Of a stretch of 64,000 bases of DNA, positions 11,735 to 59,055 are shown one piece after another. Source of the stretch: Candidatus Zhuqueibacterota bacterium (GTDB taxonomy: Bacteria > Zhuqueibacterota > Zhuqueibacteria > Thermofontimicrobiales > Thermofontimicrobiaceae). Where the stretch lies: assembly GCA_034506395.1 (NCBI GenBank), contig JAPDPQ010000002.1:52255-116254 (forward strand), written 5' to 3'. Each line of letters starts with the position of its first letter. Position 1 is the stretch's first letter. A program made the translations under genes and the position numbers. The notes under the pieces are model-generated. The model was not told where the DNA came from, ran no database searches, and saw only the letters and a list, made by a program, of their open reading frames with translations.

Positions 11735-12523
11735 ATGCAAAGGTGGAAGCTTGGGCGTATTTTCGTGCTCAGCGCCATCATCATTGCATGGGGGATCAAT
11801 GATGGATTCGCGCAAGTCAAAGTTACAATCGCCGATGTTGCAGCGACGCCTAAAAGCACGGCCAGCGTGGCAATGTTGGTGAGCGATTTATCTAATTATG
11901 AGATCATTTCCTATCAATTTGAAATTTTGTATGATTCGCTGGTTGCTCGGGCGAAAGGGGTGGCAGTTGAAGGCACGATAACCGCGCCATGGGGCAGCCC
12001 CGCGGTCAATCTGGATAGCGCTGGCAGAATGCTCGTTGGCAATTTCGGGACGCGGCCGCTTTCGCCAGGCGATACACTGCTTAAACTCATCTTTGCGGTC
12101 GTCGGATTACCGGGCGATACGAGTACGATCATCCTAAAGGATTTTCAGTTCAACAATGGCAATCCCATGGCCCTATCGAAAAACGGGCGACTAAAAGTTC
12201 TATCGCCCAGCGGTGTGGCCCAGCCTTCGCCGATCGTACCGCGAAAAGCAATCTATCTCTCTAACTCGCCAGAGCCATTTTGCGACCGCACCACGATTCA
12301 AATGATTCAGCCTTCTCCAGGAGCAATCGATATTGAGATCTACAATGTACTTGGACAGCGGATCAAACGATTAGGAAACTTTGATTCAAATCGATCCTTG
12401 TTGGAGATCGACTGGGACGCGACCGACCAGCAAGGTGGACCAGTGCCGGCTGGCATCTATTTCTGTATGGTGAGACAATTCAATCGGATTCTGGCGGTTG
12501 ATCGGATGATATTCATCAAGTGA
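11735..12523 (+). CDS. Small secreted protein (262 aa) consisting of a signal peptide, a single cohesin-like domain and a T9SS CTD.
   Basis: GAGGAG lies 5 nt upstream of the ATG. The domain 'VKVTIADVAATPKSTASVAMLVSDLSNYEIISYQFEILYDSLVARAKGVAVEGTITAPWGSPAVNLDSAGRMLVGNFGTRPLSPGDTLLKLIFAVVGLPGDTSTIILKDFQFNNGNPMALSKNGRLKV' fits the cohesin beta-sandwich pattern (V.V.I..V.A..G..V.VPV….FxL.YD..VL…G….W…N…G.I..G…GxGxL..I.F.V.G..G..S.L….FN.G.P…NG.V). The CTD is 'PEPFCDRTTIQM…IEIYNVLGQRI…AGIYFCMV'. The gene is tightly coupled to both neighbours. Confidence 0.75.
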   Translation: MQRWKLGRIFVLSAIIIAWGINDGFAQVKVTIADVAATPKSTASVAMLVSDLSNYEIISYQFEILYDSLVARAKGVAVEGTITAPWGSPAVNLDSAGRMLVGNFGTRPLSPGDTLLKLIFAVVGLPGDTSTIILKDFQFNNGNPMALSKNGRLKVLSPSGVAQPSPIVPRKAIYLSNSPEPFCDRTTIQMIQPSPGAIDIEIYNVLGQRIKRLGNFDSNRSLLEIDWDATDQQGGPVPAGIYFCMVRQFNRILAVDRMIFIK

Positions 12524-12534
12524 TTGAGGAGATT

Positions 12535-26870: not shown

Positions 26871-29426
26871 TCACTCCTCTCTTAGCGCCTGTGCTGGCGA
26901 GGTGCGTGCCATTTTGAGAGCGGGGTAGATGCCCGCAAGCAACGCCGCAAAGATGGCCAGAAGCATGGCCTGAAGCAATAGTTGCGGCAAAATTTCGAAT
27001 TGGATGCTCCAACCAAAAGATCGCTCATTTACAACTTTAATGAGCACCATGGCGAGAATGTTTCCAATGGGCATGGCGATGAAACCGGCCATGAATCCCA
27101 TCATGCTGGTCTGCAAAATCACCATGAGCCAGAGTTGTCTGGGGGTGAGCCCAATGGCACGCAATACACCGAATTCTCGGGCTCGTTCCAAATGAATGGC
27201 CATGAGGGCACTGAGCACACCGATGAATGCGACGATAATCGCTAATCCTTGCAGGACGTTGGTGATCAAAAATGTCCGATCGAACACCTCGACCGAGATA
27301 TTCAAGAGCGAACGATTGGATTGGATGATAACCTCATCCTCAGGCTGAAGCAAAGAGCGAATCTGAGCGATCAGTCGGTCGATATCTGTGCCAGGAAATG
27401 CATAGACCAGAATCCCAGACAGCTGGTCGTCCTCCCAATATTTGCGATAAGTGTGATGGGCAATTGAAAAGAGCCCCTGATCTGTGCCGTAATCATAATA
27501 TATCCCAGCGATCTGAAATTTGTGTTCGCCCCGATCGGTGGGCAAAGCAAACCAGTCACCCACTTGAAGATGGTGTCGGTAAGCAAACGGTTCAGAAATA
27601 ATGGCTGCCTCCTCATTTTGATAAGCATTCCATACCTGCATTGGATCGCCAGCTTTGAAGCTGAAATTTCGATATCGATGGGCTCCTATTTTAGCGGTGA
27701 AAAGTACGATATTTCCATGTGATGTATTAATATGCCTCTCGCGGTAATAATTGACATATTGGACCTGGGGTAACTGGGCAATCTTGTCGCAGAGGATTGG
27801 GTCAAGATCGCCATATGCCTGGGTGGCGATGAGGCGCGGCGCGGCGATATAGATATCTGCTGATAAGATATGTTCTAGCCAATTGATCACAGTCGATCTG
27901 AAATTCTGGATCATCGTTCCTACCCCGATGGTAGTGGCGACTGCGATGCTGAGCGCGGCGAGGGCGACGGCAGTTCGGCTCATCTGGGAAATGATTGCTC
28001 TGAGAGATATGCGGCCGAAAAATCCCAGCAGCCTACCAAAAATTGGCGTAAAACCGCGCACCAACAGGATCATAATTGCAGGGGTGAGCAACGCCATCCC
28101 TAACACCAGAGGGACTATGCCGGCGTAGCTCAGCAAAACATGTCGGCTGGGGATAAATAGGATCGCCGATCCGATGGTGATGAATAAGATGGCCAGCCTG
28201 GTGAGGGTCGGGGTCTTTTTTTGCAATTGGGATTCTAAAGCCGACCGGCGCATGACCACATTCACTGGGGCTAAAGTTGCCTCGCGGGCGGGCTGAAGCG
28301 CTGCACCAAGCGTTGCGATGATCCCTAAGATTAGACCTTTGATGAGGCTCGAGATCGGCAGATCCACTGAAGTGACTGAGAGCACAAAATACAAGTCATT
28401 GATGCTCTGGGTGACCAATCGAACCATGCTGCGGCCCAGCACGACTCCAACGATCAAGCCCAACACTGTCCCAATCACTCCAACCAGAAATGCCTCGGCC
28501 AAGATCAGATGGAAGATCTCTTTACGTGTGACGCCGATGGAACGAATTAACCCAAGGTAGGTTCTTCGCTGCACGACCGAAAAGGTCATGGTATTGTAGA
28601 TCAGAAACGTTCCGACAATGAGGGCTAACAGACTTAGCGCGGTGAGATTCAGGTTGAAGGCGCTGACCATTTGGGTTGCCGTTTGTGTCCGAGTTTCTGA
28701 TGGCAGAATCTGGGCACCCAGCGGAAGAGCCCTGCTGATCTTTTTCAATACTGAATCCTGATCAACAATAAGCTCAATGCGGCTGAGCATTCCAGTCATG
28801 CCCAATAATTCCTGAGCAGTAGCGATATCAGATAAAATTAAGTTTTCCCAACTTTCTTGCTGGTGTTGATCTGCTGGGGTGACGACGCCAGAGATCACAG
28901 CCGATTTTTTTGCGCTGCCAACGCGGATCTGCAGCGTATCCCCTCTTTTCACTTTGAATTCCTTTGCTAACTGATCGGAAATCAACACTGCTCCAGAAGT
29001 CGTTAGCAATGAGATCAATTGGGTTTGCAATGGATTGGTGCCTAAGATAAAGTGGGGTCGAAAAGGGGGCTCGGCAAAGGGATCAATGCCAAGGAATCGC
29101 ATTGGCCGGGGAGGATTATTGCCGATGACAACAAATTGTTCAATAATGGGAGCAATTGGTCGAATTCTCAGATCGATTCTCAGCCGAGTGTAAAGTGTAT
29201 CAGGCAGTCCTATGCCGGCGGCGACGATTTGATGGGTTGCGTTGCCGGTAATTGTTTGCATCGAGATTTCGAAGGCACGTTTGGCGCTGCGGTTCGCCAC
29301 ATCGACCGAAACCACCACGGCAACACCGAGGATAATACCCACCACCGATAAAGCTACCTGCCAGGGATGACGAACATAATATCGCAGGCTGGAGCGCAAT
29401 AAAATGTTGTTATTAAGCGGATGCAT
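26871..29426 (-). CDS. ABC transporter permease of the FtsX/MacB family, a fused double-FtsX protein (851 aa) of YbbP/AttF-AttG type.
   Basis: Two repeats each comprise a large extracytoplasmic domain followed by a 4-TM FtsX domain. Hydrophobic helices cluster at ~aa 250-420 and 720-851. It sits adjacent to the ABC ATPase. Confidence 0.85.
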   Translation of the reverse strand: MHPLNNNILLRSSLRYYVRHPWQVALSVVGIILGVAVVVSVDVANRSAKRAFEISMQTITGNATHQIVAAGIGLPDTLYTRLRIDLRIRPIAPIIEQFVVIGNNPPRPMRFLGIDPFAEPPFRPHFILGTNPLQTQLISLLTTSGAVLISDQLAKEFKVKRGDTLQIRVGSAKKSAVISGVVTPADQHQQESWENLILSDIATAQELLGMTGMLSRIELIVDQDSVLKKISRALPLGAQILPSETRTQTATQMVSAFNLNLTALSLLALIVGTFLIYNTMTFSVVQRRTYLGLIRSIGVTRKEIFHLILAEAFLVGVIGTVLGLIVGVVLGRSMVRLVTQSINDLYFVLSVTSVDLPISSLIKGLILGIIATLGAALQPAREATLAPVNVVMRRSALESQLQKKTPTLTRLAILFITIGSAILFIPSRHVLLSYAGIVPLVLGMALLTPAIMILLVRGFTPIFGRLLGFFGRISLRAIISQMSRTAVALAALSIAVATTIGVGTMIQNFRSTVINWLEHILSADIYIAAPRLIATQAYGDLDPILCDKIAQLPQVQYVNYYRERHINTSHGNIVLFTAKIGAHRYRNFSFKAGDPMQVWNAYQNEEAAIISEPFAYRHHLQVGDWFALPTDRGEHKFQIAGIYYDYGTDQGLFSIAHHTYRKYWEDDQLSGILVYAFPGTDIDRLIAQIRSLLQPEDEVIIQSNRSLLNISVEVFDRTFLITNVLQGLAIIVAFIGVLSALMAIHLERAREFGVLRAIGLTPRQLWLMVILQTSMMGFMAGFIAMPIGNILAMVLIKVVNERSFGWSIQFEILPQLLLQAMLLAIFAALLAGIYPALKMARTSPAQALREE

Positions 29427-45666: not shown

Positions 45667-47196
45667 ATGGCGATTGAGGTCACAGGAAAAGATCTGACGA
45701 TTGAGGATGTTTATCGCGTGGCTTATCAGCAGGAACAAGTGAAGCTCCATCCGGGCGCACTGGAGCGGATTCAGCGCTGCCGGGGCTTTATTGAAAAAAA
45801 AATTACGGATGGGGAGATCATGTATGGAGTGAATACTGGGATTGGCGAGCTGTGCAATGTCATTTTGAATGAGGAACAGATTCAGCAATTTCAAAAATAT
45901 TTGATCTACAATCATTCGGCTGGAATTGGGGAGCCGGTTCCGATCCCTGAGGTGCGTGCAGCGATGCTGAGCCGCATCAATGTCCATGCAAAAGGATTTT
46001 CCGGTTGTCGTCCTGAGATCACTTTGACTTACGTTGAAATGTTGAATAAAGGAGTGACCCCAGTGGTTTGTCAAAAAGGGAGTGTTGGGGCATGCGGAGA
46101 TCTTTCGCCGATGAGCCAGATGGCGTTGCTGCTCATGGGAGAAGGGGAGGCTTTCTATCAAGGGGAGCGCTTGCCAGGGGGTGTTGCGATGGAGCGCGCC
46201 GGAATTCCAATCCCCGGTTTAAAGGCCCGAGATGGTTTAGCAGCAATTAATGGGAGCAATTTGATCACTGGCATGGGCTGTTTGCAGATTTACGAGGCGG
46301 AGCGGCTCTTGAAGCAAGCAGAAATCGCCGCAGCCATGACGCTGGAAGCCCTTTTGGCGAATATGAAGCCGTACGATCCGCGCTTGCATCGGCTCCGAGG
46401 ATTTCCTGGCGCAATTACATCCGCCGAAAATCTTCAGAAGATCATCGCTGGATCTGATCTCTTAACGGGAAAAATGAAAGTGAAAGTGCAGGATGCGTAT
46501 AGCATGAGGTCGACGCCCCAGGTGATCGGTGCAGCGCGGGATCAGTTGCGCTGGACTCGCCAGCAGTTTGAAATCGAACTCAATGGCGTAGCCGATAATC
46601 CGATCTTCCTGCCCAATGATGGAATCGTGTTAACTGGAGCCAATTTTCAGGGCTCGCCGATAAGTGTGCCGCTGGATATGCTCGGGGCTTGTATTACCAT
46701 GGTCTGTGTCATTTCCGAACGTCGGCTGAACCGGTTACTCCACCCAGCGCTTAGCGTTGGATTGCCCGCGTTCCTCACTAAAGGCGCAGGGATGTTTTCG
46801 GGACACATGCTGAGCCAGTATACTGCAGATATGCTGATCGTCGAGCAGCGCATCCTCTCCATGCCCGCCTCGATCCAATCAATTCCGGCGGCTGCAGATC
46901 AGGAGGATTTCGTCAGCATGGGGATGAATACGGCGCTAAAGACCAAACAGATTATCGAAAATGCCTATGGCATTTTGGGTATTGAGTTCATTGCCGCGGC
47001 GCAGGCGCTGGATTTCAGGGATTTTCAACCAGGCAAGGGGACGCGGGCGGCTCACGCTGCGGTCCGAAAAATTGTCGACCATCTCGACGAGGACCGGCCC
47101 CTGTATCCTGATCACAATAATATGATGCAAGCTGTGAAACAGCGAAAAATTCTCGAAGCTGTCGAAGCTGAGATCGGCGAGCTGAAAACGTATTGA
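45667..47196 (+). CDS. hutH: Aromatic amino-acid ammonia-lyase family protein (MIO-dependent), histidine ammonia-lyase-like.
   Basis: GGAGG lies 6 nt upstream. The sequence aligns along its full length with HAL ('YGVNTGIGEL', 'GSVGACGDLSPMSQMALLLMGEGEA', 'QDAYSMR'). The MIO-forming tripeptide reads Ala-Cys-Gly here rather than the usual Ala-Ser-Gly. Confidence 0.8.
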   Translation: MAIEVTGKDLTIEDVYRVAYQQEQVKLHPGALERIQRCRGFIEKKITDGEIMYGVNTGIGELCNVILNEEQIQQFQKYLIYNHSAGIGEPVPIPEVRAAMLSRINVHAKGFSGCRPEITLTYVEMLNKGVTPVVCQKGSVGACGDLSPMSQMALLLMGEGEAFYQGERLPGGVAMERAGIPIPGLKARDGLAAINGSNLITGMGCLQIYEAERLLKQAEIAAAMTLEALLANMKPYDPRLHRLRGFPGAITSAENLQKIIAGSDLLTGKMKVKVQDAYSMRSTPQVIGAARDQLRWTRQQFEIELNGVADNPIFLPNDGIVLTGANFQGSPISVPLDMLGACITMVCVISERRLNRLLHPALSVGLPAFLTKGAGMFSGHMLSQYTADMLIVEQRILSMPASIQSIPAAADQEDFVSMGMNTALKTKQIIENAYGILGIEFIAAAQALDFRDFQPGKGTRAAHAAVRKIVDHLDEDRPLYPDHNNMMQAVKQRKILEAVEAEIGELKTY

Positions 47197-48921: not shown

Positions 48922-50658
48922 CTAAAGACCTTGAGCCACTTGATGATAAACCTCAAGGTAGCTCTGAGCTGCATTGGACCAATCGAAACTTCGAGCCTGC
49001 TTGAAGCCCATAATGATCAATCGGTAGTATTCCTCGGGATGATGTTGGTAGAGATGAATGGCCTCGATTAATTTTTCATGCAACGCGGCGACCATGCTTT
49101 GGGACCAGGGATTGGCACGTCGAGCGTTTAAATCATTGCTATGGGCAAAGTAATCTCGGATAAAAGCGATTTGATAAAAATCGTTTGTTTCACGATACAA
49201 TAAACCACAGCGTTGGTCCTGAATCTGGTCAGCCAGACCACCCGTTTTTCGCGCGAGGACCACCGTTCCATTGACCAGATATTCCAAGGCGGCACCGAAC
49301 GGTTCGTAAATGGAGGGCATCAGCCCGAAACTGCTGCCCAGAAGCAATTCCTGGTATCCTTGTTCCAACCGCATGGGGAACATTGTGACATTGCCTTGAC
49401 ACCGTGAAACGGCTTCACGGAGGAAATCCAAATGGCTAAATTTGGATACCAGAGGCGTTAAAACGACCTTGATCTCGTCCGGCGCAAACCGCTCAAAACA
49501 TTGCAGCGCAATATCGTACCCTTTCTGATTTACGTCCATTCGGCCAGTCATTGCAATAATTGGAACTGAGTCGGGCAGATGGCTAATCGGTCCTCCCTGG
49601 TAGGTCAATGCTCCAATTTGTTCGGCTGGGTGATATTGCTCCAAAACCTGCAACAATGCTTTTCGATTTCGCGATTTGATTTCTTTGATTTTTTGGATTG
49701 TCAGTTGTTTTTCTGGCCTGAATTCCTCTGGGAACGGTACAAAAGGGCCGTTTGGAATGCCGACGAGTTTAGACCGCTGAAGCAATGGCTGGAGGTGCGG
49801 AGCAAAATACTCGGCTTGGAGGATGTCAGTAGTTAATTCTCGAGCAAAGGATTGACTCACTGTCGTGATCGGTGCATCGACCAGGGGCAGAGCGAGCTGC
49901 AGGGCCGTCAATCCCTGTCGGAATTGTCGTTCGATCCGTTCGATCGTGCCAGCACCGAGGATTGGTACCAGCGATTCCCATGGAACAAAGCAATCGAACA
50001 CATTATGAAGGGTTATCACCGAGCCGCAAGAACGCAATACCCCATTTCGCATCGCGAGCTTACTGGTCAACGCGATCAGAGCAGATTGCCAATCCTGGAG
50101 GTGAAATACAATATTATTGTCGCGACCTAAAGCCTTTAACGCGAATGGCACTGCATGACAAAATATGAGCGCATTCTGCAAAAGCAGCCGATCATTCTCA
50201 TCTTGGTCCGATTCATGAAAGATGTATGGATCATTGAGCCTATTTTGCGCATTGAAAAAGCCATCGATCTTCAAATAATATTCTTTAACCGCACCATGCT
50301 CACCACAAGGAATCGAATGTTCCAAAATTTCGACATCGTATTGGTGCTGACCCACTTCGATTGACACATGCTGATGGGTCGGGGACACTCGTCGTTCATC
50401 GATGATTCCAGAATGAAACGGCGTTAGGACGATGACGTCCACATTGGGATCAGCGGCTTTTAAATGTAGGGGTAAGAGGGTAGCCACAGCACCCAGTCCC
50501 CCACTTTTGGCGAAACGATTTTCATAGGTACAATAGGCAACAGTTTCGATCTGCAGGTGTTTCAGCCGATCGACTATCAAATTGATTTCAGCATTATCAA
50601 AAAAATAAGGCATCAAAGTCCAGTCCTTGGACCAATCGATATGGGGCTTTTCTTTCAT
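48922..50658 (-). CDS. GT5-family glycogen/starch-synthase-like glycosyltransferase.
   Basis: The 'FAKSGGLGAV' motif matches GlgA's 'KTGGLADV'. The C-terminal GT-B domain ('EPFGAALEYLVNGTVVLARKTGGLADQI') matches GlgA's 'EPCGLTQLYALRYGT.P.VR.TGGL.DTV'. There is an extra ~40-aa N-terminal extension. Confidence 0.7.
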   Translation of the reverse strand: MKEKPHIDWSKDWTLMPYFFDNAEINLIVDRLKHLQIETVAYCTYENRFAKSGGLGAVATLLPLHLKAADPNVDVIVLTPFHSGIIDERRVSPTHQHVSIEVGQHQYDVEILEHSIPCGEHGAVKEYYLKIDGFFNAQNRLNDPYIFHESDQDENDRLLLQNALIFCHAVPFALKALGRDNNIVFHLQDWQSALIALTSKLAMRNGVLRSCGSVITLHNVFDCFVPWESLVPILGAGTIERIERQFRQGLTALQLALPLVDAPITTVSQSFARELTTDILQAEYFAPHLQPLLQRSKLVGIPNGPFVPFPEEFRPEKQLTIQKIKEIKSRNRKALLQVLEQYHPAEQIGALTYQGGPISHLPDSVPIIAMTGRMDVNQKGYDIALQCFERFAPDEIKVVLTPLVSKFSHLDFLREAVSRCQGNVTMFPMRLEQGYQELLLGSSFGLMPSIYEPFGAALEYLVNGTVVLARKTGGLADQIQDQRCGLLYRETNDFYQIAFIRDYFAHSNDLNARRANPWSQSMVAALHEKLIEAIHLYQHHPEEYYRLIIMGFKQARSFDWSNAAQSYLEVYHQVAQGL

Positions 50659-50857
50659 TCGTTTTATAACTCCACAGCTTCAAGTCGGTGATACTTTTTT
50701 CCATCGCGAATAAATTGATGATTCGGAAAATGGATTTTGACCTCAGATTCAGCCAAATGAAAATATGGTTGAACAATGATATTGATCGATGGATATTCCG
50801 ATGATCGAAATTATGAGCTCTTAGGATTTATTGATCGCAGAAGCGCCTTGATTGTGG

Positions 50858-51568
50858 TCATTGGGACATGTTCCAAATGATCACCGAGTCGAATAATTTC
50901 GATTCTCTTGCCTGACGCTGCAGTTGAATGGCTTCCGCGCGAGTCATCGGTCCACCGATGACGATCGAATACTGCGTTCGACTACCGAACGGTTCGTAGA
51001 CCTCGAATTTGAATTGATCGGTCTTTTTCGTCAATCTTTTCGCCTCATTCATCGCATCAGAGAGCTTGTCGTGTGAGCCGACAATCACAAAAAAGGTTCG
51101 TCGCGGGTTAATGCCCAACAAGCCGCGCCAGAATTGCTGGATTGGTGTTTCTTGGGGCAATGCAAAAGTTCTCAGCCGGAGCTCGATACGAGTGGTATCC
51201 TGAACTTGGGTGGTATCCTGGGATTGAGCATAGACCACCGAGCTGAACAATGGCAAGCCGATGGGATGATTCGCGGTCGCCGAGTGCCTTTGTGGGACAT
51301 CGATTTGTCCGGCATTGATGAGCGCGGTGATTAATGCCGGTGCAACAATGCCCAGTTCAAAGATTTTGACTGGGTTGTTCTCATCTTTATGGAGGAACGC
51401 TGTGATCCCGCCGAGATAGAACAAAATGAGCACGCGAATAGCATAGCCCAGCACGGCAAAAACGGTGAGTTTTACCAACAACACCTCCAAATCCACCACC
51501 AGTAAATTCATGATAATCGGTGTCAGCGCACCCAGCCCACCGATGAATATTTTCTTCCATGTTTTCAT
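50858..51568 (-). CDS. Membrane protein with a possible C-terminal SPOR-like (peptidoglycan-binding) domain.
   Basis: Three N-terminal TM helices are present. The C-terminal ~75 aa ('FFVIVGSHDKLSDAMNEAKRLTKKTDQFKFEVYE…YSIVIGGPMTRAEAIQLQRQARESKL') resembles the SPOR βαββαβ pattern. This assignment is weak. Confidence 0.4.
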   Translation of the reverse strand: MKTWKKIFIGGLGALTPIIMNLLVVDLEVLLVKLTVFAVLGYAIRVLILFYLGGITAFLHKDENNPVKIFELGIVAPALITALINAGQIDVPQRHSATANHPIGLPLFSSVVYAQSQDTTQVQDTTRIELRLRTFALPQETPIQQFWRGLLGINPRRTFFVIVGSHDKLSDAMNEAKRLTKKTDQFKFEVYEPFGSRTQYSIVIGGPMTRAEAIQLQRQARESKLFDSVIIWNMSQ

Positions 51569-52221
51569 TGACGCCTCTCCTCTTGGCAAAAATGAGCATC
51601 AGAATTAAAATCTGGCTGCTTGATGACCACAACTAGCGCAATAGATCCGATGATCAGGTACAAAAAAGCTGCATTACTGCTCCTACCCGGGATCAATTGT
51701 GCCTTCTCCTAACGTTACAAAGCATCGGCAAAATGTGAACCCTCCATCATTCCGAACCACGCCAGTTGTTGGAGGGAAATTTGGTTAATCAGCGATTCCG
51801 AAAAAGACGCCTTCTTCGATCTGTCGAATGACGGACAGATCCACTTGGAATGAACAGAATATATCGCTTTCACAAAAACATAATTTCGTACGGTGGGTTC
51901 GAGTTCAATATTTTATGCGGCAAGATACTAAATTTAGATCGATTTGTCAAGCTCAAATTTGGCTGCCTGAAATTTTGGTTGCTTCAAAGCACTATTGGCC
52001 GAAACGCAGTTCAATCTGTCTGGCTATTTCTCATTAGATTTCATTTTTGGGCGATAGCAATGATAGTTACAATCGAATTCGATGAATAATCCTCTGAGAA
52101 CGTTCAGGGACGCTTCATCTGTGAAAAAATTTAGAAGGAGTTGAATAGCGATCGCGCAAAGCAACTCTTGATGGAGCATTAATTCGATAAATTTTATAAG
52201 GAACCAGCTCCCAAGCGTTCA

Positions 52222-52914
52222 TTACTCTTCCACCACGTACTCGAACAATAAGCTTGCCATTACCAGAAAAATGATATCGAAACCGATCAGAATTCTGAGC
52301 CAGGATGCCGCGCCAGCTAAGCTCTCCTGATTGATTAGCGAACTGGTCGCTTTCACAGCGGCCAGCAGCACGGGGATTGCAATCGGAAATAGCAGAATGG
52401 GCAGCAGGATCTCCCTGGCGCGAGTATTGACCGAAATGGCAGAGAGCAAGGTTCCAACGGTAGCGAACCCCAGAGTGCCCAAAAGAATAATGGATAGGAG
52501 AGGGAGCAGAATGGCGAAAATATCAAGATTGAAAAGCACAATCATCAAAGGAAGCATGATCACTTCCATCAATACCATGAACAAGAAATTTCCGATCATC
52601 TTGCCCAAATAAAGCAGATAGTGGTCTACGGGACAAAGCAGCAGCCCCATCAAGCAGCCCTGGTCGACTTCGTAGATGAACGAGCGATTCAGGCCCAACA
52701 AGCCCGCGAAAGTGATGGCGACCCAGAGAATTCCAGGTACCATTTGTTTGACCACGGTACTTCCTGGTTCGAACATGAAATTGAAAATGACCACCACGAT
52801 CAAGCAAAAGATCAGCATTGATGAGATGGTTTCGCGACTTCGAAGCTCTGAGAGAATGTCCTTCCAGGCGATTGTGATCATGGGTGGCATCGTCATGCTT
52901 TTTGCTCCCTTCAA
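52222..52914 (-). CDS. ccmB: Heme exporter protein B (ABC permease CcmB).
   Basis: It is ~225 aa with 6 TM helices. It aligns with CcmB ('PGILWVAITFAGLLGLNRSF..E.DQGCLMGLLLCP'). It lies directly downstream of ccmA. Confidence 0.75.
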   Translation of the reverse strand: MKGAKSMTMPPMITIAWKDILSELRSRETISSMLIFCLIVVVIFNFMFEPGSTVVKQMVPGILWVAITFAGLLGLNRSFIYEVDQGCLMGLLLCPVDHYLLYLGKMIGNFLFMVLMEVIMLPLMIVLFNLDIFAILLPLLSIILLGTLGFATVGTLLSAISVNTRAREILLPILLFPIAIPVLLAAVKATSSLINQESLAGAASWLRILIGFDIIFLVMASLLFEYVVEE

Positions 52915-52970
52915 TCTATTGCAAGAACATGCGCAACAGGTAAAGAGTCATTTGGACCGTTTGCTGCATA

Positions 52971-53744
52971 TTAGGATGGCTCCTCTGTCAATCGGCGATA
53001 AAGGGATTTAAACGCCAATGGATCATATTCACGGGTAAGTCCTTGCCACACAAGCCTTCCTTTTGATAGGATGACGAAATGGCTGGCCAGTTTTAATCCC
53101 AAATCGAGATCATGAGTGGTCATGACGATCGTGCGATCGGGTGAGATTAATGAAGTGAATAAATCGACGAAATTTTCGATGGCACTTTGGTCCAGTCCAG
53201 TAAAAGGCTCATCCAATAAAATAATTTTGGGATCGGCAAGGAGGGCGCGACCGATGGAGAGACGCTGCTGCATGCCGCGGGAAAAGGTGCGAACCAGGTC
53301 GTGTCGGCGGGCCGAGAGACCAATAAGCTGGAGCGTCCTTTCGATCTGTCGTTGGGCATTGGGGAGGTGATACATCCTAGCGTAGAACCTCAAATTTTCC
53401 TCAGCAGTCAGATTGTTGTATAAAAAGCTTTGATGTCCAATAAATCCGATCTGCTGTCGAATAGCGAGCGGTTGGGTTTTAGCCGACTGTTGCGCCCCAG
53501 TGGTCTGGTTCTGATTTCTTGCCGCGGGACCATTTAACTGAGCCGCTGATCGAGAGGTTGTTTGGATGATTATCTCCCCTTGGGAGGGTTTCGCCAGGGT
53601 TGCGATGAGTTTAAGCAGGGTGGTCTTGCCAGCACCATTAGGTCCAATTATCATCCAATATTGCCCTGGCGTAATCTCAAGCGTAATATCTTTTAGGGCA
53701 ACGAACGAGCCGAACGATTTCGAGACTTCGTGGAGTGTGATCAT
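52971..53744 (-). CDS. ccmA: Heme exporter ATP-binding protein CcmA, carrying a low-complexity insertion.
   Basis: Walker A is 'GPNGAGKTTLLKLIA', the signature is 'FSRGMQQRLSIGRAL' and Walker B is 'ILLDEPFTGLD'. The start is the ATG of 'MITLHEV' (53744), which overlaps the upstream gene's stop (ATGA). A Q/T/A-rich ~45-aa insertion ('TTSRSAAQLNGPAARNQNQTTGAQQSAKTQPLAIRQQ') lies between Walker A and the Q-loop. Confidence 0.8.
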   Translation of the reverse strand: MITLHEVSKSFGSFVALKDITLEITPGQYWMIIGPNGAGKTTLLKLIATLAKPSQGEIIIQTTSRSAAQLNGPAARNQNQTTGAQQSAKTQPLAIRQQIGFIGHQSFLYNNLTAEENLRFYARMYHLPNAQRQIERTLQLIGLSARRHDLVRTFSRGMQQRLSIGRALLADPKIILLDEPFTGLDQSAIENFVDLFTSLISPDRTIVMTTHDLDLGLKLASHFVILSKGRLVWQGLTREYDPLAFKSLYRRLTEEPS

Positions 53745-54709
53745 GACTTGGCTTTTCTCATGGTATACACAAAACCGACCAGCAGCAAGGCAACGACAGC
53801 GATCAGCACCAACCATTGAATGGAGAACGAAAAATGCTTGATAGGAATATTCGTAAGAGTAAAATTGAGTTCCATCCCTGGCATGAGGTGGAATGCTGAA
53901 TACCGCTGATAGTTGATGCCGCGAATCGAGAATTCTCCCTGTTTCATGATCCCCGGACCTTGCAATACAAGCTCCGGGTTCGAGACAAAAATATTGATTC
54001 CCCCGCTTGGATAAATGACGGGGCGCGAAAAATTCCATTCCGATTTTCTGGTCGGCACTGAAAAACGGAACGAAAATTGGCGCGAGCCCGGCGACATCAG
54101 CTCAGTGTGATAGAGCTGATCCCCCTCGATTCGAACCACATTTTGAGCCTCTGGTGTCAGGATTTCCAGATCTTCGAACCCATCCGGCAAGGGAAATTGC
54201 AGCACGAAATGTTGCTCGGGCTGATCGAAATGTTCGCCAATAAACGTCTTATTCCCCACATTGTTCATGACGAAAATTTCGCGGAACAGCAGCTTGCCTG
54301 GCTCAGCGTCGATGAACAGATGCTCTAATTGTAAAACGATCTTTTCGGGACTCGAGGTCGTGTCATATACGATCACATTGCTTTGCGCCACGGGCGTGTC
54401 GGTTGTTAAACGCACCGCCTGGCCGTAGTAAACAATATCGACAAATGTGGAACGAGGATAATAAAGTAGGGTGCTATCGAGCTTCAAACCTTGAAATTCA
54501 AAATGACCTTTTGCATCGGTTTTTTGCATATACGACGAGTCATCAACGACGGTATGACCACGATTGACAAGTAGATTCACTTCCGCCCCAGCCACAATCG
54601 TACTATCGGCTGAGCCGTTATAAACGAAACCAGAAATTTTGCCAGTCTGGGCCAATATCGGCATTGAAAAGAAACTCATTGCTAAGAAAATCAAAACGAA
54701 ATATCTCAT
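53741..54709 (-). CDS. Hypothetical exported protein encoded inside the ccm operon. It has a signal peptide, a CarboxypepD_reg-like beta-sandwich, an unknown domain and a C-terminal TM anchor.
   Basis: The signal peptide is 'MRYFVLIFLAMSFFSMPILAQT'. 'GKISGFVYNGSADSTIVAGAEVNLLVNRG…TDAKGHFEFQGL' is CarbopepD_reg-like. The C-terminal hydrophobic helix is 'WLVLIAVVALLLVGFVYTM' followed by basic residues. The protein has no cysteines. It is translationally coupled to ccmA. Confidence 0.55.
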   Translation of the reverse strand: MRYFVLIFLAMSFFSMPILAQTGKISGFVYNGSADSTIVAGAEVNLLVNRGHTVVDDSSYMQKTDAKGHFEFQGLKLDSTLLYYPRSTFVDIVYYGQAVRLTTDTPVAQSNVIVYDTTSSPEKIVLQLEHLFIDAEPGKLLFREIFVMNNVGNKTFIGEHFDQPEQHFVLQFPLPDGFEDLEILTPEAQNVVRIEGDQLYHTELMSPGSRQFSFRFSVPTRKSEWNFSRPVIYPSGGINIFVSNPELVLQGPGIMKQGEFSIRGINYQRYSAFHLMPGMELNFTLTNIPIKHFSFSIQWLVLIAVVALLLVGFVYTMRKAKS

Positions 54710-54885
54710 TTTTCCCTTCCGTAATTAACGATCTATTCACTTTAAGATTAAAAAATGCCTTGATTGAATACTCGATCGATTGAGCAGCATCGCTTTTTAG
54801 CAACAATGGGCTTTAGTACCGTTTTTTATCATGACACATATGCTTGAAAGCGAAACCTCTGGTCCAGAACTTAAGACTCAACTTG

Positions 54886-56913
54886 TCACCGTCCTTTTTT
54901 ACTCTTGGATGACCTGGCATTTTTTGGTCGCTCCGATGATGGAGCTGCCGAATCCTTTTTTCGCGCTGCCTGGATCAGGATAATGGAAACGCCTATGACC
55001 ATAACAAAGCCTCCAATCCACATCCAAATCTGGAGCGGATTCACCAAAAATGTGAACGTGGCAGATCCATCATCCTGGTAGCTGGATAGAATGGCATAGA
55101 GGTCCTCTTTGAATGTCGAGCGAACCGCTACCTCCGTAGTATACTGGGTTTTACCCATGGCGGAATGATAGAAATTTCGCTGCGGCTTCAAAATCCCAAT
55201 TTTTTTGCTATCTTTGAAGACTTCTAATTCTGCAATAAGTATATCCTGGTTGGTCCGATGGCGTTCTCCCATCCCGGTATAAACCAGGCGGTAGCTGCCA
55301 ATGCCTGTCGCTTGGCCTTGTTGAAGGGTGATCTGCTTTTCCTGTTTGAAAGCGGTTGTGCCAACAATCGCCAAATAGATCAAAATAACTCCAACATGGA
55401 TCAAATAACCAGCATAGCGTCGCGTATTATGTTTTAAGGTTCGGAATAACGCAGGAATATAGCGCATTTTTTCTGATTTGACGCGATGACTTGCTGCACC
55501 GATGATTTCCGCGGCGATGATCGCCAGAGCAAGAAATGCGATCACTAGGGTGACCAACGCCCAAACATGATTGATCCCAGAAACATAGAGAATGATTCCA
55601 AATAACACCGATGTAGTGAAAGGATAAAGGCCTCGATTCAATAGGACTTGATTTGAGGTCTCACGCCACGATAAGATGGGGCAAATCGCCAGCAAAAACA
55701 ACAGCACGAGTCCAATAGGTTTGGCAATTCGATTGAAATAAGATTCGCCCAAGGCAACTTGCTTTCCGATGAACAACTCGGTAATAGCTGGGGCTAACGT
55801 GCCGATCAAGACCATAACCAATAGCACAATGAAGATGATGTTGAGGAGCAGAAAACTGGTCTCGCGGCTCAAAAGCGATTCATAGAAAGATTTGGAGCGC
55901 ATCTTGTTAATGCGGAACACCATCAAACCGATTGCTACCACCAAGATGATTAGCATGAATACGAGGAATAATGTGCCAAGATTGGATTGGCCAAAGGCAT
56001 GCACCGAGGAGATGATCCCGCTGCGCGTGATGAAAGTGCCCAGGATGGTCAGCAAAAAGGTGAGGATTGCCAGCGAAACGTTCCAACCGCGCATCAGATC
56101 CCGTGTCTTTTGCGCCATGATGGAATGGACCAGCGCCGTACCAGTGAGCCAGGGCAATAGAGAAGCGTTTTCCACTGGGTCCCAAGCCCAATAACCGCCC
56201 CATCCCAATTCCACATAGGCCCATTGCGCGCCCAAGAGATTGCCCACGGTCAATGCGATCCAGGCAAATAAGGTCCAATTTCGGCTACGATCCAGCCATA
56301 GATCGGAAACATCACCCTTGGCTAAAGCCGCTATTGCATAGGCAAAAGGAATTGTGAAACCGACGAAACCCAGAAAAAGCGATGGTGGGTGAAAAATCAT
56401 CTCCGGGTTCTGAAGCAACGGATTCAACCCCATGCCATCTGGCGGAACTGGGGACAATCGCTCGAATGGATTGGTGGCGTAGTTGACCAGAACGAGAAAG
56501 AAAAGGGTGACAAGATTGACAGTTGCCACCACATGATGTTTAAAAGGATCATCTTTGGTCCGATTCAGAAAAATATAGAGTGCGTTAAAAATCGTTAGCA
56601 GCCAGGTCCAGAACAGCAACGATCCTGACTGACCAGCATAAACTGCTGATAACGTGTATAACAATGGCAGGTGTCGATCCGAATAATCAGCGACGTATCG
56701 AAACGAGAAGTCGCGGCTGACAAAGGCATGAGCAAGGACAAAGATACTCAGGGTGATCAATATAAATTGACCGTAAACTGCCAGGTTCGCATTTTGGAGC
56801 CATGATTTTCGCTGTAATTTTATTCCCGAAACACCTGCCCAAATCGAATAGGCCGAGGCAATAAATGCAAGCAATAATAGGTAATGTCCCAATGACAATG
56901 TAATTCTCCTCAC
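54886..56913 (-). CDS. ccmF: Cytochrome c-type biogenesis protein CcmF (heme lyase / NrfE family).
   Basis: It is 675 aa and polytopic. The WWD motif is 'WGGYWAWDPVENASLLPWL'. The overall length and hydropathy are typical of CcmF. Confidence 0.9.
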   Translation of the reverse strand: MRRITLSLGHYLLLLAFIASAYSIWAGVSGIKLQRKSWLQNANLAVYGQFILITLSIFVLAHAFVSRDFSFRYVADYSDRHLPLLYTLSAVYAGQSGSLLFWTWLLTIFNALYIFLNRTKDDPFKHHVVATVNLVTLFFLVLVNYATNPFERLSPVPPDGMGLNPLLQNPEMIFHPPSLFLGFVGFTIPFAYAIAALAKGDVSDLWLDRSRNWTLFAWIALTVGNLLGAQWAYVELGWGGYWAWDPVENASLLPWLTGTALVHSIMAQKTRDLMRGWNVSLAILTFLLTILGTFITRSGIISSVHAFGQSNLGTLFLVFMLIILVVAIGLMVFRINKMRSKSFYESLLSRETSFLLLNIIFIVLLVMVLIGTLAPAITELFIGKQVALGESYFNRIAKPIGLVLLFLLAICPILSWRETSNQVLLNRGLYPFTTSVLFGIILYVSGINHVWALVTLVIAFLALAIIAAEIIGAASHRVKSEKMRYIPALFRTLKHNTRRYAGYLIHVGVILIYLAIVGTTAFKQEKQITLQQGQATGIGSYRLVYTGMGERHRTNQDILIAELEVFKDSKKIGILKPQRNFYHSAMGKTQYTTEVAVRSTFKEDLYAILSSYQDDGSATFTFLVNPLQIWMWIGGFVMVIGVSIILIQAARKKDSAAPSSERPKNARSSKSKKGR

Positions 56914-57053
56914 ATGATCTTAGAGTAATGCCGAACACGGAATGGAACAATTTGGATTTTAGGTTGTGAAGCATGAAAGAAAAATCAGGCAGTCGCGCAA
57001 TTGCTTCTCAGAAAGGAGCCTCCGCAGATATAAAATGCTATTTATCCGAGGAA

Positions 57054-57437
57054 TTACTCCCGCTTTGCCTCATATTTGGATGGGCATTTGGTCATGATCT
57101 GTGTGGCATTGAAGGTACCATTTTCATATTTGCCTTCCACAACCACCGATAGACCTTCTTGAAAGGTATCTGGGGCGACGCCCTTATGTTGAACGTTCAG
57201 CACTTTATTGCCGTCCGTCAGTTGAAAGCTGAGCAAAAGGCGCGGAGCATCCCACTGAATCGAGCCTGGAACCACCTCGCCGTTGATGCGCGTCCCTTTT
57301 CCCTCAAGCTGATGCGCTTGGGCAAAAAATTCATCAACGGTCAAGAAATAAACGGATGAATCCTTCATGCCCGACCAGAACAAATAAACAACAACGATCA
57401 ATATGATGAGTCCACCAATAAGCAATTTTTTATTCAT
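57054..57437 (-). CDS. ccmE: Cytochrome c-type biogenesis heme chaperone CcmE, of the variant CxxxY type.
   Basis: An N-terminal TM anchor is followed by an OB-fold ('GEVVPGSIQW…VQHKGVAPDTFQEG..VVVEGKY'). The C-terminal 'TKCPSKY' has Cys in place of the canonical heme-binding His of HxxxY. GGAGG lies upstream of the start. Confidence 0.85.
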   Translation of the reverse strand: MNKKLLIGGLIILIVVVYLFWSGMKDSSVYFLTVDEFFAQAHQLEGKGTRINGEVVPGSIQWDAPRLLLSFQLTDGNKVLNVQHKGVAPDTFQEGLSVVVEGKYENGTFNATQIMTKCPSKYEAKRE

Positions 57438-57523
57438 GCTGAAATTGCCTCCTGAATAATTCTAATAAAACCGAAATACAACAGAGTTTTTCCGAAGTAT
57501 CGATGGAAAAAGGCGAGGTCCGG

Positions 57524-58792
57524 TCACTTAATGATATCCGTGCCCATGAACTCTCTCAGCACCCGAGGAACGATGACTGTACCCTCGTCGGTTTGATAAT
57601 TTTCTAAGATGGCGATCACCGTTCTCGGCAATGCAAGTCCAGATCCATTGAGCGTATGGACATATTCGGGCTTGGCATTGGCATCGCGCTTGAATCGGAT
57701 ATTGGCGCGTCGAGCTTGGAAATCCTCAAAATTGCTGCAAGATGACACTTCCAGCCACTTGCCGAGACCATCAGCCCAGACTTCGATGTCATAGCATTTA
57801 GCAGCCGCAAAGCTCAGATCTCCAGTCGAAAGAGCCATGACACGATATGGCAACTCCAAGAGTTGCAAGACTTCCTCAGCATTTTGAAGCAACTTTTCCA
57901 ATTCATCGTAAGAACTTTCTGGCGTGACAAATTTCACCATTTCGACCTTATCAAATTGATGCACCCGCACCAGTCCACGAGTATCTTTGCCATAGGTCCC
58001 TGCTTCGCGACGAAAGCAAGGGGTATAGGCGGTATAATATATTGGCAGGTCCTCGCCTCGAAGGATTTGATCGCGCAACAAATTCGTCACTGGCACTTCA
58101 GCCGTGGGGATAAGAAACAAATCGTCTTGCGAGGTGACGTACATGTCATCTTCGAGCTTGGGAAGCTGCCCGGTGCCGAACATGCTTTCGCGATTCACCA
58201 AAAACGGTGGATATACTTCGGTATAACCATGTTTTTTGATATGAAGATCAAGCATAAAATGGATCAGCGCGCGCTGCAACCGGGCCCCCAGACCTTTATA
58301 GTTAATGAAAAACGAGCCGGCGACGCGAGACCCTCCTGCAAAATCGATGATCCCCAGCTTCTCGCCGATCTCCCAATGCGGTTTTGCTTTGAAATCCTTA
58401 GGAGGCAGTTCGCCCCAGCGTTTGACCTCTAAATTTGCTGAAGCATCCTGACCAATCGGGACCGATTCATGGGGAATGTTAGGGATGCGGATTAGGATGT
58501 CATAGATCTGCTGGTCGAGGGTTTTCACCCGATCGTCCATTTGTTTGATCCGATCTGCCACGGATTTCATTTGACTAATCAGATGACTGGCATCCTGTCG
58601 TTGCTGTTTCAAACGACCGATCTCCTCAGAGACCTGATTTCGTTCATGTTTTAGCGCTTCGACTTCAGTCAGAATCTGCCGTCGCTCCCCATCCAATTGC
58701 AACAGGCGATCGATATCTGCATGATCATTTTTTAGCTGAATGGCTTGTTTGACGCGATCGACATTGTTGCGAATAAACTTGATGTCTAACAT
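57524..58792 (-). CDS. serS: Serine--tRNA ligase.
   Basis: The N-terminal coiled-coil is '[22 protein letters not shown]…'. The class-II catalytic core is present ('[26 protein letters not shown]', '[28 protein letters not shown]'). The length is 422 aa. Confidence 0.9.
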
Positions 58793-59055
58793 GTTGAGTC
58801 CTCACCTATTATATTTTGGGTCTTTAGCTCGCATCCCGCTATTATTCTTTCATCGATTCGTTATCAGTCTCAGAGATCGTAGAACCGATCAATCAACTAA
58901 GAAGCGATCCAGTATTCCATTATTTTGATTTATGCTTTTAACACCGGAATGATGCAAAAGTTCACTTTTCCAATGCGCTACCAGGATAAAACAAACCAAA
59001 AAACCGATCATTTAAAAAATCAAGCTATCGATGAATCAGTATGCTGTCAAATTCG

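Follow-up and report, generated by a model that had tools for sequence, protein, structure and literature searches.

The ccm cluster in the window, by which we mean the whole 64,000-nucleotide stretch of DNA that was analysed, carries a 322-residue open reading frame between the genes for the haem lyase CcmF and the ATPase CcmA. The question raised by this locus is what an uncharacterised, exported and membrane-tethered protein does at that position. A preliminary description had suggested that it might supply an accessory periplasmic function, for example in apocytochrome handling, to a variant System I lacking CcmH and CcmI. We refer to the reading frame as ORFX, and to the large family of membrane-tethered periplasmic proteins to which it belongs as X.

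Results

A conserved gene coupled to ccmA

The reading frame and its 4-nt ATGA overlap with ccmA are both present in the sequence as first described (Table 1). ORFX occupies the slot between ccmF and ccmA on the minus strand, with its TGA at 53743-53741 and the ccmA ATG at 53744-53742, and the minus-strand junction reads ...AAG TCA TGA. Six of seven related loci from KSB1 retain the TCATGAT junction, where the ccmA orthologues begin with MIKI…, and the X gene overlaps ccmA by 4-26 nt in five distant loci (L011, L014, L015, L021 and L024; Table 2). The translational coupling of ORFX to ccmA, as had been claimed, is real and conserved. A promoter and terminator scan found no terminator on the minus strand of the ccmF-ORFX interval and promoter-like sites not far above the shuffled expectation, and an Rfam search of positions 50000-59000 gave no matches.

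Table 1. ORFX, its neighbours and its parts, in positions of the window
Feature	Positions	Strand	Basis
ccmE, Cys-type, ending …TKCPSKYEAKRE	57054..57437	(-)	Pfam CcmE 3.2e-29; motif read off translation
ccmF (haem lyase), 176 nt upstream of ORFX	54886..56913	(-)	Pfam CcmF_C 1.5e-52, Cytochrom_C_asm 1e-39
ORFX, 322 aa, exported and C-terminally anchored	53741..54709, including stop codon	(-)	ORF list, ATG start
Signal peptide, aa 1-20 (MRYFVLIFLAMSFFSMPILA)	54650..54709	(-)	Read from sequence; AF2 helix 2-19
Domain 1, aa 23-115, transthyretin/CarboxypepD_reg-like beta-sandwich	54365..54643	(-)	
His130 codon	54320..54322	(-)	Plus-strand atg, CAT on the minus strand
Domains 2-3, aa 124-286, all-beta, without sequence-family match	53852..54340	(-)	AF2 secondary structure, conservation, structural matches
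C-terminal TM helix, aa 297-316, then 6-residue cytoplasmic end MRKAKS	53762..53821	(-)	AF2 helix 297-321
ATGA stop/start overlap of ORFX and ccmA	53741..53744	(-)	Sequence
ccmA (ABC ATPase), start at the ATG inside the ATGA overlap	52971..53744	(-)	TIGR01189 133.4 bits, cutoff 131.6
ccmB (ABC permease)	52222..52914	(-)	Pfam CcmB 3.7e-39

Searches with ORFX recovered 43 close homologues that are 45-89% identical to it (best E 1.7e-192), all of them from the uncultured phylum KSB1/Zhuqueibacterota. The gene order SerRS-ccmE-ccmF-X-ccmA-ccmB is kept in all seven KSB1 genome loci (48-74% identity), and the frame is intact in all relatives, neither missing nor frameshifted. Because of these homologues, and because the identity of X parallels that of CcmF and CcmA from locus to locus, ORFX is clearly a real gene and not a chance reading frame.

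Topology and fold of ORFX

The N-terminus, MRYFVLIFLAMSFFSMPILA followed by QTGK, reads as a typical Sec signal with a basic n-region, a hydrophobic core and an ILA cleavage-type site, and the homologue alignment shows the equivalent hydrophobic stretch, up to QTG, to be conserved. At the other end, the hydrophobic stretch I297-T316 followed by MRKAKS fits the positive-inside rule, and W299, G312, Y315 and T316 of the helix are conserved. The signal peptide and C-terminal TM helix of the preliminary description agree well with these features, and its CarboxypepD_reg-like beta-sandwich corresponds to Domain 1.

The AF2 model of ORFX (mean pLDDT 89.3, pTM 0.73) comprises three beta-sandwich domains and is all-beta apart from the signal peptide and the TM helix, with strands across residues 124-286. 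A region of about 200 residues had been described as without recognisable motif; residues 124-286 indeed have no Pfam or NCBIfam match, but they are predicted to fold as further beta-sandwiches. By sequence, ORFX scores under the gathering threshold of PF13620 (CarboxypepD_reg) and has no match to PF03918 (CcmH), to TPR families in Pfam or to NCBIfam, and PDB sequence searches with three family profiles gave nothing significant. The PF13620 fold covers less than one third of ORFX and is uninformative on function.

Domains 2-3 match OST1/ribophorin I and the N-terminal beta-domain of M1 aminopeptidases in structure, and pilin, CnaB and transthyretin-like proteins are among the further fold matches. 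OST1, a subunit of the eukaryotic oligosaccharyltransferase, offers an analogy of architecture only, with 8-13% identity, no detectable sequence similarity, and a different pathway in another domain of life; the aminopeptidase domain is 6-14% identical, and X lacks a catalytic domain. Shared by pilins, adhesins and aminopeptidase N-domains, the beta-sandwich is a generic fold and therefore without functional specificity.

A large, unnamed family

An exhaustive profile search recovered 3320 cluster representatives of X at E<=1e-3, 1655 at <=1e-10 and 175 at <=1e-30, all of them unnamed or labelled "hypothetical". The best 150 of the 3320 are near full-length matches; genomic context was sampled for the top of this list only, and weaker matches may share just Domain 1. 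Neither Pfam, NCBIfam nor the literature searched gives the family a name, and literature searches on uncharacterised ccm neighbours and on a zinc-ribbon protein with CcmF and CcmH returned nothing relevant.

ORFX has the family architecture of a signal peptide, an all-beta ectodomain of about 270 residues and a single C-terminal TM helix. It also carries all of the residues that are 93-100% conserved in the 150-sequence alignment (N31, T118, H130, E144, N150, P175 and P207-G208), of which the polar N31, T118, H130, E144 and N150 are near-invariant (H130 98%, E144 95%, N150 97%). H130, E144, N150, P175 and P207-G208 all lie within Domains 2-3.

ORFX contains eight histidines and no cysteine. 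Cysteine is likewise lacking from all KSB1 members and from 50 of 149 distant members sampled, whereas a vicinal pair in the motif LMSCC is conserved in 54 of the 149, about one third. Because many members carry this pair, the lack of cysteine is a feature of the clade, not of the family. The absence of cysteines from ORFX had been read as evidence against a thiol-redox Ccm component, and we agree that a protein with none cannot be one; given the cysteine-free members elsewhere, a thiol function is not the common role of X either.

Distant loci and a zinc-ribbon partner

A locus search with a narrower family alignment gave just five metagenome loci. The distant sample considered here comprises 13 loci with upstream neighbours, at 20-38% identity and including Acidobacteriia (Table 2). 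The X gene follows ccmF(-ccmH/-ccmG) in 12 of the 13, the thirteenth contig being too short for ccm genes. Together with the seven KSB1 loci, this speaks clearly against homologues scattered without ccm linkage. A small TM plus zinc-ribbon protein, ZnR, is encoded directly before X in all 13 loci, with start/stop coupling to X in L010, L011, L012 and L022. ccmA(BCD) follows X in six distant loci, with a small CcmD-like ORF after ccmC in L011, L014, L015 and L024, and ccmABC does not adjoin X in L008, L010, L012/L013 and L022.

Table 2. Order of ccm genes (single letters), ZnR and X in the distant loci
Locus	Order	Remark
L008	F-H-ZnR-X	
L009	F-ZnR-like-X	
L010	F-H-ZnR-X	
L011	E-F-ZnR-X-A-B-C-D	
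L012/L013	F-H-ZnR-X	
L014	E-F-H-ZnR-X-A-B-C-D	
L015	F-ZnR-X-A-B-C-D	
L016	ZnR-X only	short contig
L017	H-ZnR-X	
L018	F-H-ZnR-X	
L021	E-F-H-ZnR-X-A	
L022	E-F-H-G-ZnR-X	
L024	E-(F)-H-ZnR-X-A-B-C-D	Acidobacteriia

Most distant X members end in a cytoplasmic tail, IAxLDDxFExGxIxxxxYxxxRxxLK, that is homologous to the N-terminus of ZnR (hhalign 98.2%, E 3.7e-14). Tail and adjoining ZnR gene are typical of the family, not universal. ORFX has no tail, ending six residues past its TM helix, and the zinc-ribbon gene is absent from the window and the KSB1 loci; outside KSB1, tail-less forms occur in L017, P0045, P0076 and P0100. X is found with ZnR in Acidobacteriota and other lineages, including GC-rich ones, and without it in KSB1/Zhuqueibacterota.

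By tblastn, ccmC, ccmD, ccmH and ZnR are absent from the 64-kb window and from 10 kb on either side of the seven KSB1 loci, the sole matches reflecting CcmC-CcmF paralogy within ccmF. The KSB1 gap between ccmF and X, 47-482 nt long and unconserved, contains no degraded zinc-ribbon gene and no conserved small ORF. CcmI is absent from the window and from within 10 kb of its KSB1 relatives, and no TPR protein or CcmI was found in any annotated flank of the X loci examined.

Association with System I*

System I*, the variant Ccm system, is distinguished by its CcmE, in which CxxxY replaces HxxxY. Every CcmE that we saw beside an X gene is of this Cys type (KCPSKY, KCPTRY or KCASKY), and the CcmE of the window ends …TKCPSKYEAKRE where that of E. 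coli has …AKHDENY. Judged by the sequence of its CcmE, the cluster in the window is of the System I* type. In the System I* cluster of Desulfovibrio, the ccmF-ccmA slot reportedly holds a TPR gene. The literature indicates that CcmH is not obligatory for System I*. For M. acetivorans, heterologous expression of CcmABCEF is enough (PMC9084895), and E. coli supports a functional Desulfovibrio cluster (PMC3601427). These results indicate that an X-like protein is not always needed for System I* to function, and a role of X may therefore be facilitating or lineage-specific.

Comparison with CcmI and CcmH

CcmI (CycH) binds apocytochrome c and apo-CcmE, and consists of a TIGR03142 N-terminal module and a periplasmic TPR domain. 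It acts as apocytochrome chaperone within CcmFHI and spans the membrane with two TM helices, with a loop in the cytoplasm and a domain in the periplasm (PMC3884852; PMC12285233). X resembles it in being encoded with ccmF/ccmH, in its membrane anchor and in its large periplasmic domain, but the ectodomain of X is three beta-sandwiches rather than TPR, and the anchor is C-terminal rather than N-terminal. Among 66 X proteins, six match the TM and cytoplasmic-loop part of TIGR03142 (best 1.7e-5), as do three of seven ZnR proteins (0.002-0.07), all below cutoff (best score 22 bits, cutoff 29.3). This resemblance concerns the long-form X tail and ZnR. Because hhalign found no similarity of the X tail and the ZnR N-terminus to E. 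coli CcmH, the link to CcmI stays a weak lead. ORFX itself, with an all-beta model and neither tail, TIGR03142 match nor TPR, was rejected as a member of the CcmI family.

CcmH (PF03918), likewise a partner of CcmF, is anchored in the membrane, faces the periplasm and has its gene directly behind ccmF. It is a small, helical thiol-oxidoreductase with an LRCxxC motif, whereas ORFX is all-beta and cysteine-free. The possibility that X substitutes for CcmH was rejected, most other lineages encoding both, and a role like that of CcmI would fit X better.

Discussion

Because the X family adjoins ccmF in the ccm clusters examined, ORFX is probably an unrecognised accessory part of the Ccm machinery, and we lean towards a role for X as an accessory component that acts with the CcmF module. 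That X is specifically an apocytochrome chaperone is possible, if rather unlikely. The accessory periplasmic piece envisaged in the preliminary description is supported in part by the strict ccm synteny, but the conserved neighbour is the CcmF module rather than the exporter, and X does not stand in for CcmH, with which it co-occurs in most clusters outside KSB1. The loci in which ccmABC is not adjacent to X (L008, L010, L012 and L022) point to the CcmF(-CcmH) haem-lyase module, and not to the CcmAB exporter, as the conserved partner of X.

ORFX is the KSB1/Zhuqueibacterota version of X, which would be a dedicated component of System I* clusters. X may be exported by Sec, its three beta-sandwiches lying in the periplasm and its single C-terminal helix in the inner membrane. 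It could be a subunit for docking or chaperoning, tethered in the periplasm, that cooperates with the holocytochrome c synthase module CcmF(-CcmH) and holds apocytochrome c and/or holo-CcmE at the lyase, comparable to the proteobacterial TPR protein CcmI with a different fold. We infer that X associates physically with CcmF and binds apocytochrome or CcmE. The homologous modules of the long-form X tail, a TM-proximal cytoplasmic helix, and of ZnR would probably pair in the membrane and cytoplasm; in the KSB1 clade, tail and zinc-ribbon gene may both have been lost while ectodomain and anchor were kept. It is tempting to speculate, tentatively and somewhat short of probability, that X and ZnR form an unrecognised, widespread core module of System I* that replaces the TPR-type CcmI. 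In such a trans-membrane pair, a periplasmic all-beta arm would present apocytochrome or holo-CcmE* to CcmF and a cytoplasmic zinc-ribbon arm would couple inside the cell, KSB1 having kept the periplasmic arm only.

Alternatively, X may handle haem or holo-CcmE* instead of the apoprotein, with His130 together with Glu144 and Asn150 ligating haem or helping to break or transfer the Cys-haem thioether at CcmF. We consider this doubtful. It agrees with the high conservation of these three residues, with the Cys-type CcmE beside every X gene and with the existence of cytochrome c fusions, and the release of haem from the thioether of Cys-type CcmE is chemically unexplained (System I review, PMC3601427).

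An accessory role of X in haem export or CcmE release by the CcmAB(C) module, such as that of a CcmD-like stabiliser, is improbable. The conserved overlap with ccmA in KSB1, its counterparts in five distant loci and the lack of ccmD from the KSB1 cluster would fit such a role, but X follows ccmF-ccmH-ZnR with no ccmABC adjoining in L008, L010, L012/L013 and L022, a CcmD-like ORF is present besides X in four other clusters, and X is also coupled to the zinc-ribbon gene upstream. More improbable still is an unrelated envelope protein, adhesin-like or structural, riding in the operon. In favour are the generic fold, matched by pilin, CnaB and transthyretin-like proteins, and the lack of a recognised functional motif; against it, X keeps its place in lineages as distant as KSB1, Acidobacteriia and GC-rich ones, is coupled to ccm genes on both sides, and occurs in fusions to cytochrome c. 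Least likely of all is a redox component giving thiols or electrons to apocytochrome, haem or the b-haem of CcmF, which the LMSCC pair and the cytochrome c fusions of some members might suggest, but which the many cysteine-free members oppose.

The field has yet to explain how System I* manages in the absence of CcmI and, in many cases, of CcmH or CcmG (PMC3601427; PMC9084895). With thousands of members tied to ccmF across phyla, the X family is a concrete candidate for the handling of apocytochrome or CcmE that is missing there, and an X/ZnR module would add new components to the CcmA-I list that reviews treat as complete. It would also improve annotation of cytochrome-rich uncultured lineages (Acidobacteriota, KSB1), and could aid heterologous production of multihaem cytochromes from organisms of these types.

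A tblastn search of 72,556 plasmids found no copy of X and matched only the cytochrome c domain of a fusion protein. In fusions of this kind, an N-terminal mono- or dihaem cytochrome c domain is joined to X, and the fused genes still lie within ccm clusters.

ORFX is encoded in a System I* ccm operon

ORFX, the 322-aa ORF between ccmF and ccmA, is encoded within a ccm operon of System I*, the variant with a Cys-type CcmE (CcmE*), and is probably co-translated there. The minus strand over 52.2-58.8 kb reads serS, ccmE, ccmF, ORFX, ccmA, ccmB in the ORF list, with the Ccm neighbours identified from Pfam and NCBIfam. Reading the junction in the sequence bears out the 4-nt ATGA overlap described for ORFX and ccmA: the ORFX stop TGA occupies 53743-53741 and the ccmA ATG 53744-53742. 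The CcmE in the window ends in …KCPSKYEAKRE, and is thus a Cys-type System I* chaperone (PMC3601427, PMC9084895), not one of the His type.

This arrangement is conserved. Among 5.8 billion proteins, a word-indexed search recovered 43 ORFX homologues that share 45-89% identity with it (lowest E 1.7e-192). All are unnamed, and their few taxon labels read 'candidate division KSB1' or 'Candidatus Zhuqueibacterota', two names for one uncultured phylum of the FCB superphylum (PMC11683472). Forty sequences align collinearly, at a mean column identity of 64%. All seven KSB1 loci keep the order ccmE-ccmF-X-ccmA-ccmB (X being the unnamed family that contains ORFX), with serS upstream wherever the contig extends, and identities across these loci run in parallel for X (48-74%), CcmF (57-70%) and CcmA (51-64%). 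The X/ccmA stop/start junction TCATGAT is present in six of the seven. The ccmF-X spacer is unconserved (47-482 nt) and contains neither a small ORF nor a predicted terminator.

The KSB1 cluster is minimal, comprising ccmE*-ccmF-X-ccmA-ccmB both in the window (52222-57437) and in the relatives (L001-L007). Neither the window nor the +/-10 kb flanks in the relatives contain ccmC, ccmD, ccmH or ccmG, and ccmC must therefore lie elsewhere. The window also has no gene for ZnR, the small TM and zinc-ribbon protein encoded upstream of X in distant loci, and no CxxCH-containing ORF of at least 100 aa across its whole 64 kb.

Two neighbours deserve separate mention. Between its Walker A and ABC signature regions, CcmA has a low-complexity insert ('…SRSAAQLNGPAARNQNQTTGAQQSAKTQPLAIRQQ…') whose length differs among KSB1 orthologues (the alignment has 297 columns in L001 vs 255 elsewhere). 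A membrane protein with a SPOR domain follows ccmB in the window and in six of seven KSB1 loci, at a spacing of ~170 nt to 1.4 kb, and probably lies outside the operon.

Positions of features in the window and in loci with distant X homologues (L008-L024)
Feature	Position	Strand	Remark
serS	57524-58792	-	ORF list
ccmE	57054-57437	-	Pfam CcmE 3.2e-29
ccmF	54886-56913	-	Pfam CcmF_C 1.5e-52
ORFX	53741-54709	-	ORF list
ccmA	52971-53744	-	TIGR01189, just above cutoff
ccmB	52222-52914	-	Pfam CcmB 3.7e-39
SPOR-domain protein	50858-51589	-	Domain C-terminal, Pfam E 1.6e-4
FlgD_ig run	57-23829	+	Large secreted proteins
FlgD_ig protein	57-4298	+	Big_1/invasin Ig-like domains
FlgD_ig protein	6368-9037	+	FG-GAP repeats
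FlgD_ig protein	9050-11722	+	FG-GAP repeats, dockerin, CarboxypepD_reg
FlgD_ig protein	12520-14970	+	N-terminal cohesin domain
B12-binding radical SAM enzyme	4409-5974	+	Ordinary gene
MacB/FtsX-type ABC permease	26871-29426	-	Ordinary gene
Lhr-type large helicase, 1529 aa	33459-38048	-	Ordinary gene
Aromatic amino-acid ammonia-lyase	45667-47196	+	Pfam Lyase_aromatic, E 1e-165
ZnR gene	L008:2845-3264
ZnR gene	L010:3807-4238
ZnR gene	L012:8534-9004
ZnR gene	L014:7975-8454
ZnR gene	L015:8502-8891
ZnR gene	L018:1697-2158
ZnR gene	L021:7495-7944
ZnR gene	L022:7306-8001
ZnR gene	L024:5498-5950
Cytochrome c-X fusion	L014:9001-10464
Cytochrome c-X fusion	L022:8001-9854
CcmH, Cys-rich motif	L008:2369-2833
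CcmH, Cys-rich motif	L010:3334-3795
CcmH, Cys-rich motif	L012:7976-8461
Second small protein after X	L012:10612-10980

ORFX is an anchored, all-beta periplasmic protein

Every descriptive point made about ORFX in the preliminary description was confirmed. The protein has no cysteine, a signal-peptide-like N-terminus (MRYFVLIFLAMSFFSMPILA/QTGK), and a 20-residue hydrophobic C-terminal segment (I297-T316) followed by MRKAKS. Its sole sequence-family match is the CarboxypepD_reg-like region at residues 25-77, which is sub-threshold (E 2.3e-4, 21.9 bits vs a cutoff of 32.3); NCBIfam gave no match. AlphaFold2, run on the ORFX alignment (mean pLDDT 89.3, pTM 0.73), predicts a signal helix, a first beta-sandwich (~23-115), further beta-sandwich structure (124-286), a short linker and a helix at 297-321. 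The protein is exported, all-beta and periplasmic, is held by a C-terminal anchor, and evolves under purifying selection.

Profile searches found no PDB chain related to X by sequence. Fold matches to ORFX include, lower in the ranking, the M1 aminopeptidase N-terminal beta-domain and Gram-positive pilins. OST1, a subunit without catalytic activity in a membrane enzyme complex, likewise joins extracytoplasmic sandwiches to one C-terminal TM helix, a likeness that at 8-13% identity is one of architecture only.

X is a large family whose constant partner is ccmF

The X family is very large and extends far beyond KSB1. When 1.84 billion cluster representatives were searched exhaustively with an HMMER profile, 3320 proteins matched at E<=1e-3, the lower tail of which may share only domain 1. 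E is <=1e-10 for 1655 of them and <=1e-30 for 175, and the matches of the best 150 span nearly the whole profile. Most members, at 375-400 aa, add to an ORFX-like ectodomain and TM helix a cytoplasmic tail of 50-90 residues with the motif IAxLDDxFExGxIxxxxYxxxRxxLK. Near-invariant residues (ORFX numbering) are G27, N31, L46, G68, F72, Y94, T118, H130 (98%), E144 (95%), N150 (97%), P175, P207 and G208. Domain 2 has two vicinal cysteines ('LMSCC') in about one third of members, and another third are Cys-free, as is ORFX. With Pfam and NCBIfam models, none of ten distant members scored at or above threshold, and every member named in databases is a 'hypothetical protein'.

Genomic context was sampled from the best-scoring members, covering all distant homologues with neighbours on their contig; taxon labels among the loci are KSB1/Zhuqueibacterota, Acidobacteriia, 'bacterium' and a mislabelled 'Cytophagia'. 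The homologues are not scattered at random with respect to ccm genes: ccmF and/or ccmH lies upstream in 12 of the 13 distinct distant loci with upstream neighbours (the other, L016, lies on a contig too short to extend that far) and in 7/7 close loci. The ccmF(-ccmH) haem-lyase module is the only constant genomic partner of the family.

Gene order at distant X loci
Locus	Order
L008, L010, L012/L013, L018	ccmF-ccmH-ZnR-X
L009	ccmF 3' end-ZnR-like-X
L011	ccmE-ccmF-ZnR-X-ccmA-B-C-(D)
L014	ccmE-F-H-ZnR-X-ccmA-B-C-(D)
L015	ccmF-ZnR-X-ccmA-B-C-(D)
L016	ZnR-X only; short contig
L017	ccmH-ZnR-X
L021	ccmE-F-H-ZnR-X-ccmA
L022	ccmE-F-H-ccmG-ZnR-X
L024 (Acidobacteriia MAG)	ccmE-(F)-H-ZnR-X-ccmA-B-C-(D)

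A small protein is encoded directly upstream of X in 13/13 distant loci, ZnR in all except L009, where it is ribbon-less; a weaker X member (E 1.6e-12, short contig) likewise has a zinc-ribbon gene just before it. X is coupled to both sides: its stop overlaps the ccmA start by 4-26 nt where ccmA comes next, and equally there are 1-8 nt overlaps with the ZnR gene (L010, L011, L012, L022). CcmE is Cys-type in all X clusters where it is seen (KCPSKY, KCPTRY, KCASKY). CcmH of several clusters has unusual Cys-rich motifs such as 'LICMCECGMTVEACEGAMDCSS' instead of canonical LRCxxC, and a second small protein, encoded after X in L012, contains 'FRCPCGSCDLVLSKCEHVRC'.

In ZnR proteins (85-229 aa), a TM helix at the N-terminus is followed by a cytoplasmic helix (LxxIKDLEFDYxMGKISxEDY) and, in most, by a C-terminal zinc ribbon. 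This family too is large, with >436 matches, many from Acidobacteriia, none named CcmI; names are 'hypothetical' or 'zinc ribbon domain-containing protein [Acidobacteriia]'. Its TM and helix are homologous to the TM and tail of X (hhalign profile-profile, probability 98.2%, E 3.7e-14). Both may resemble the N-terminal TM/cytoplasmic-loop module of CcmI (NCBIfam TIGR03142), a lead rather than a demonstration: 6 of 66 X tails match at E<=0.01 (best 1.7e-5) and 3 of 7 ZnR at E 0.002-0.07, all below the 29.3-bit cutoff. One X tail gives a sub-threshold match to Pfam SHOCT (E 1.8e-4), and E. coli CcmH showed no similarity to X tail or ZnR N-terminus. Neither ZnR gene nor X tail was found in the window or the KSB1 loci; this co-loss is only suggestive and no rule, because tail-less X also occurs elsewhere, as in L017, where ZnR is present.

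In several members (P0202, P0203, P0204-P0206, P0208, P0211; 487-623 aa) the X ectodomain is preceded by one or two c-type cytochrome domains (CxxCH) at the N-terminus, a Rosetta-stone-type link that places the ectodomain beside cytochrome c in the periplasm. At least two are encoded within ccm clusters (L014, L022). For P0202 the called start appears truncated: a signal peptide is missing, and there is a gap of 547 nt upstream.

A proposed CcmI-like role

The System I/I* pathway is already known; X is a candidate new component of it. Neither X nor ZnR has a Pfam/NCBIfam model, a solved structure, a name in any source or a mention in the searched literature. On balance, we slightly favour ORFX as a Ccm accessory of the CcmF module. 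X would then be an accessory subunit of the CcmF(-CcmH) haem lyase in a role for which CcmI offers the best fit. CcmI belongs to the CcmFHI complex as a periplasmic protein anchored in the membrane; it binds apocytochrome c, and a ternary complex arises with apo-CcmE (PMC3884852; refs in PMC12285233). Suggestive of this are the gene's place after ccmF/ccmH, the large tethered periplasmic domain, the cytochrome c fusions, the weak CcmI resemblance of tail and ZnR, the OST1-like 'substrate-presenting subunit' architecture, and the absence of TPR CcmI from X clusters (no TPR protein is listed in the flanks of X loci). Tested for the features that define CcmI, the TIGR03142 module and a TPR domain, ORFX has neither; X may work like a CcmI, and is not one. 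The earlier proposal of an accessory periplasmic Ccm protein is thus supported in part, with the CcmF module as partner and a role like that of CcmI rather than CcmH. Its suggested example, apocytochrome handling, is more tentative: ORFX could possibly be an apocytochrome chaperone specifically.

Alternatively, X could handle haem or holo-CcmE* through H130, E144 and N150. X associates exclusively with Cys-CcmE, and the release chemistry of the Cys-haem thioether is unexplained (PMC3601427), both of which lend this reading appeal. Methanosarcina and Desulfovibrio System I* are reported functional without extra factors (PMC9084895, PMC3601427), and no haem-binding fold is recognised in X. Overall this reading is unlikely. 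An accessory of the CcmAB(C)/CcmD-like exporter is quite improbable, as ccmABC does not adjoin X in L008, L010, L012 and L022, and an unrelated hitch-hiking envelope protein marginally more so, given the deeply conserved gene position. A thiol or electron-transfer component, the least credible reading, is impossible for Cys-free ORFX and a third of the family.

Other genes in the window

The proteins of the FlgD_ig run share this domain at their C-termini; to our knowledge, an adjoining cohesin/dockerin pair is unusual outside clostridial cellulosomes. The MIO-forming triad of aromatic amino-acid ammonia-lyases is usually Ala-Ser-Gly, and the enzyme in the window reads 'GACGD' (Ala-Cys-Gly) at that position.
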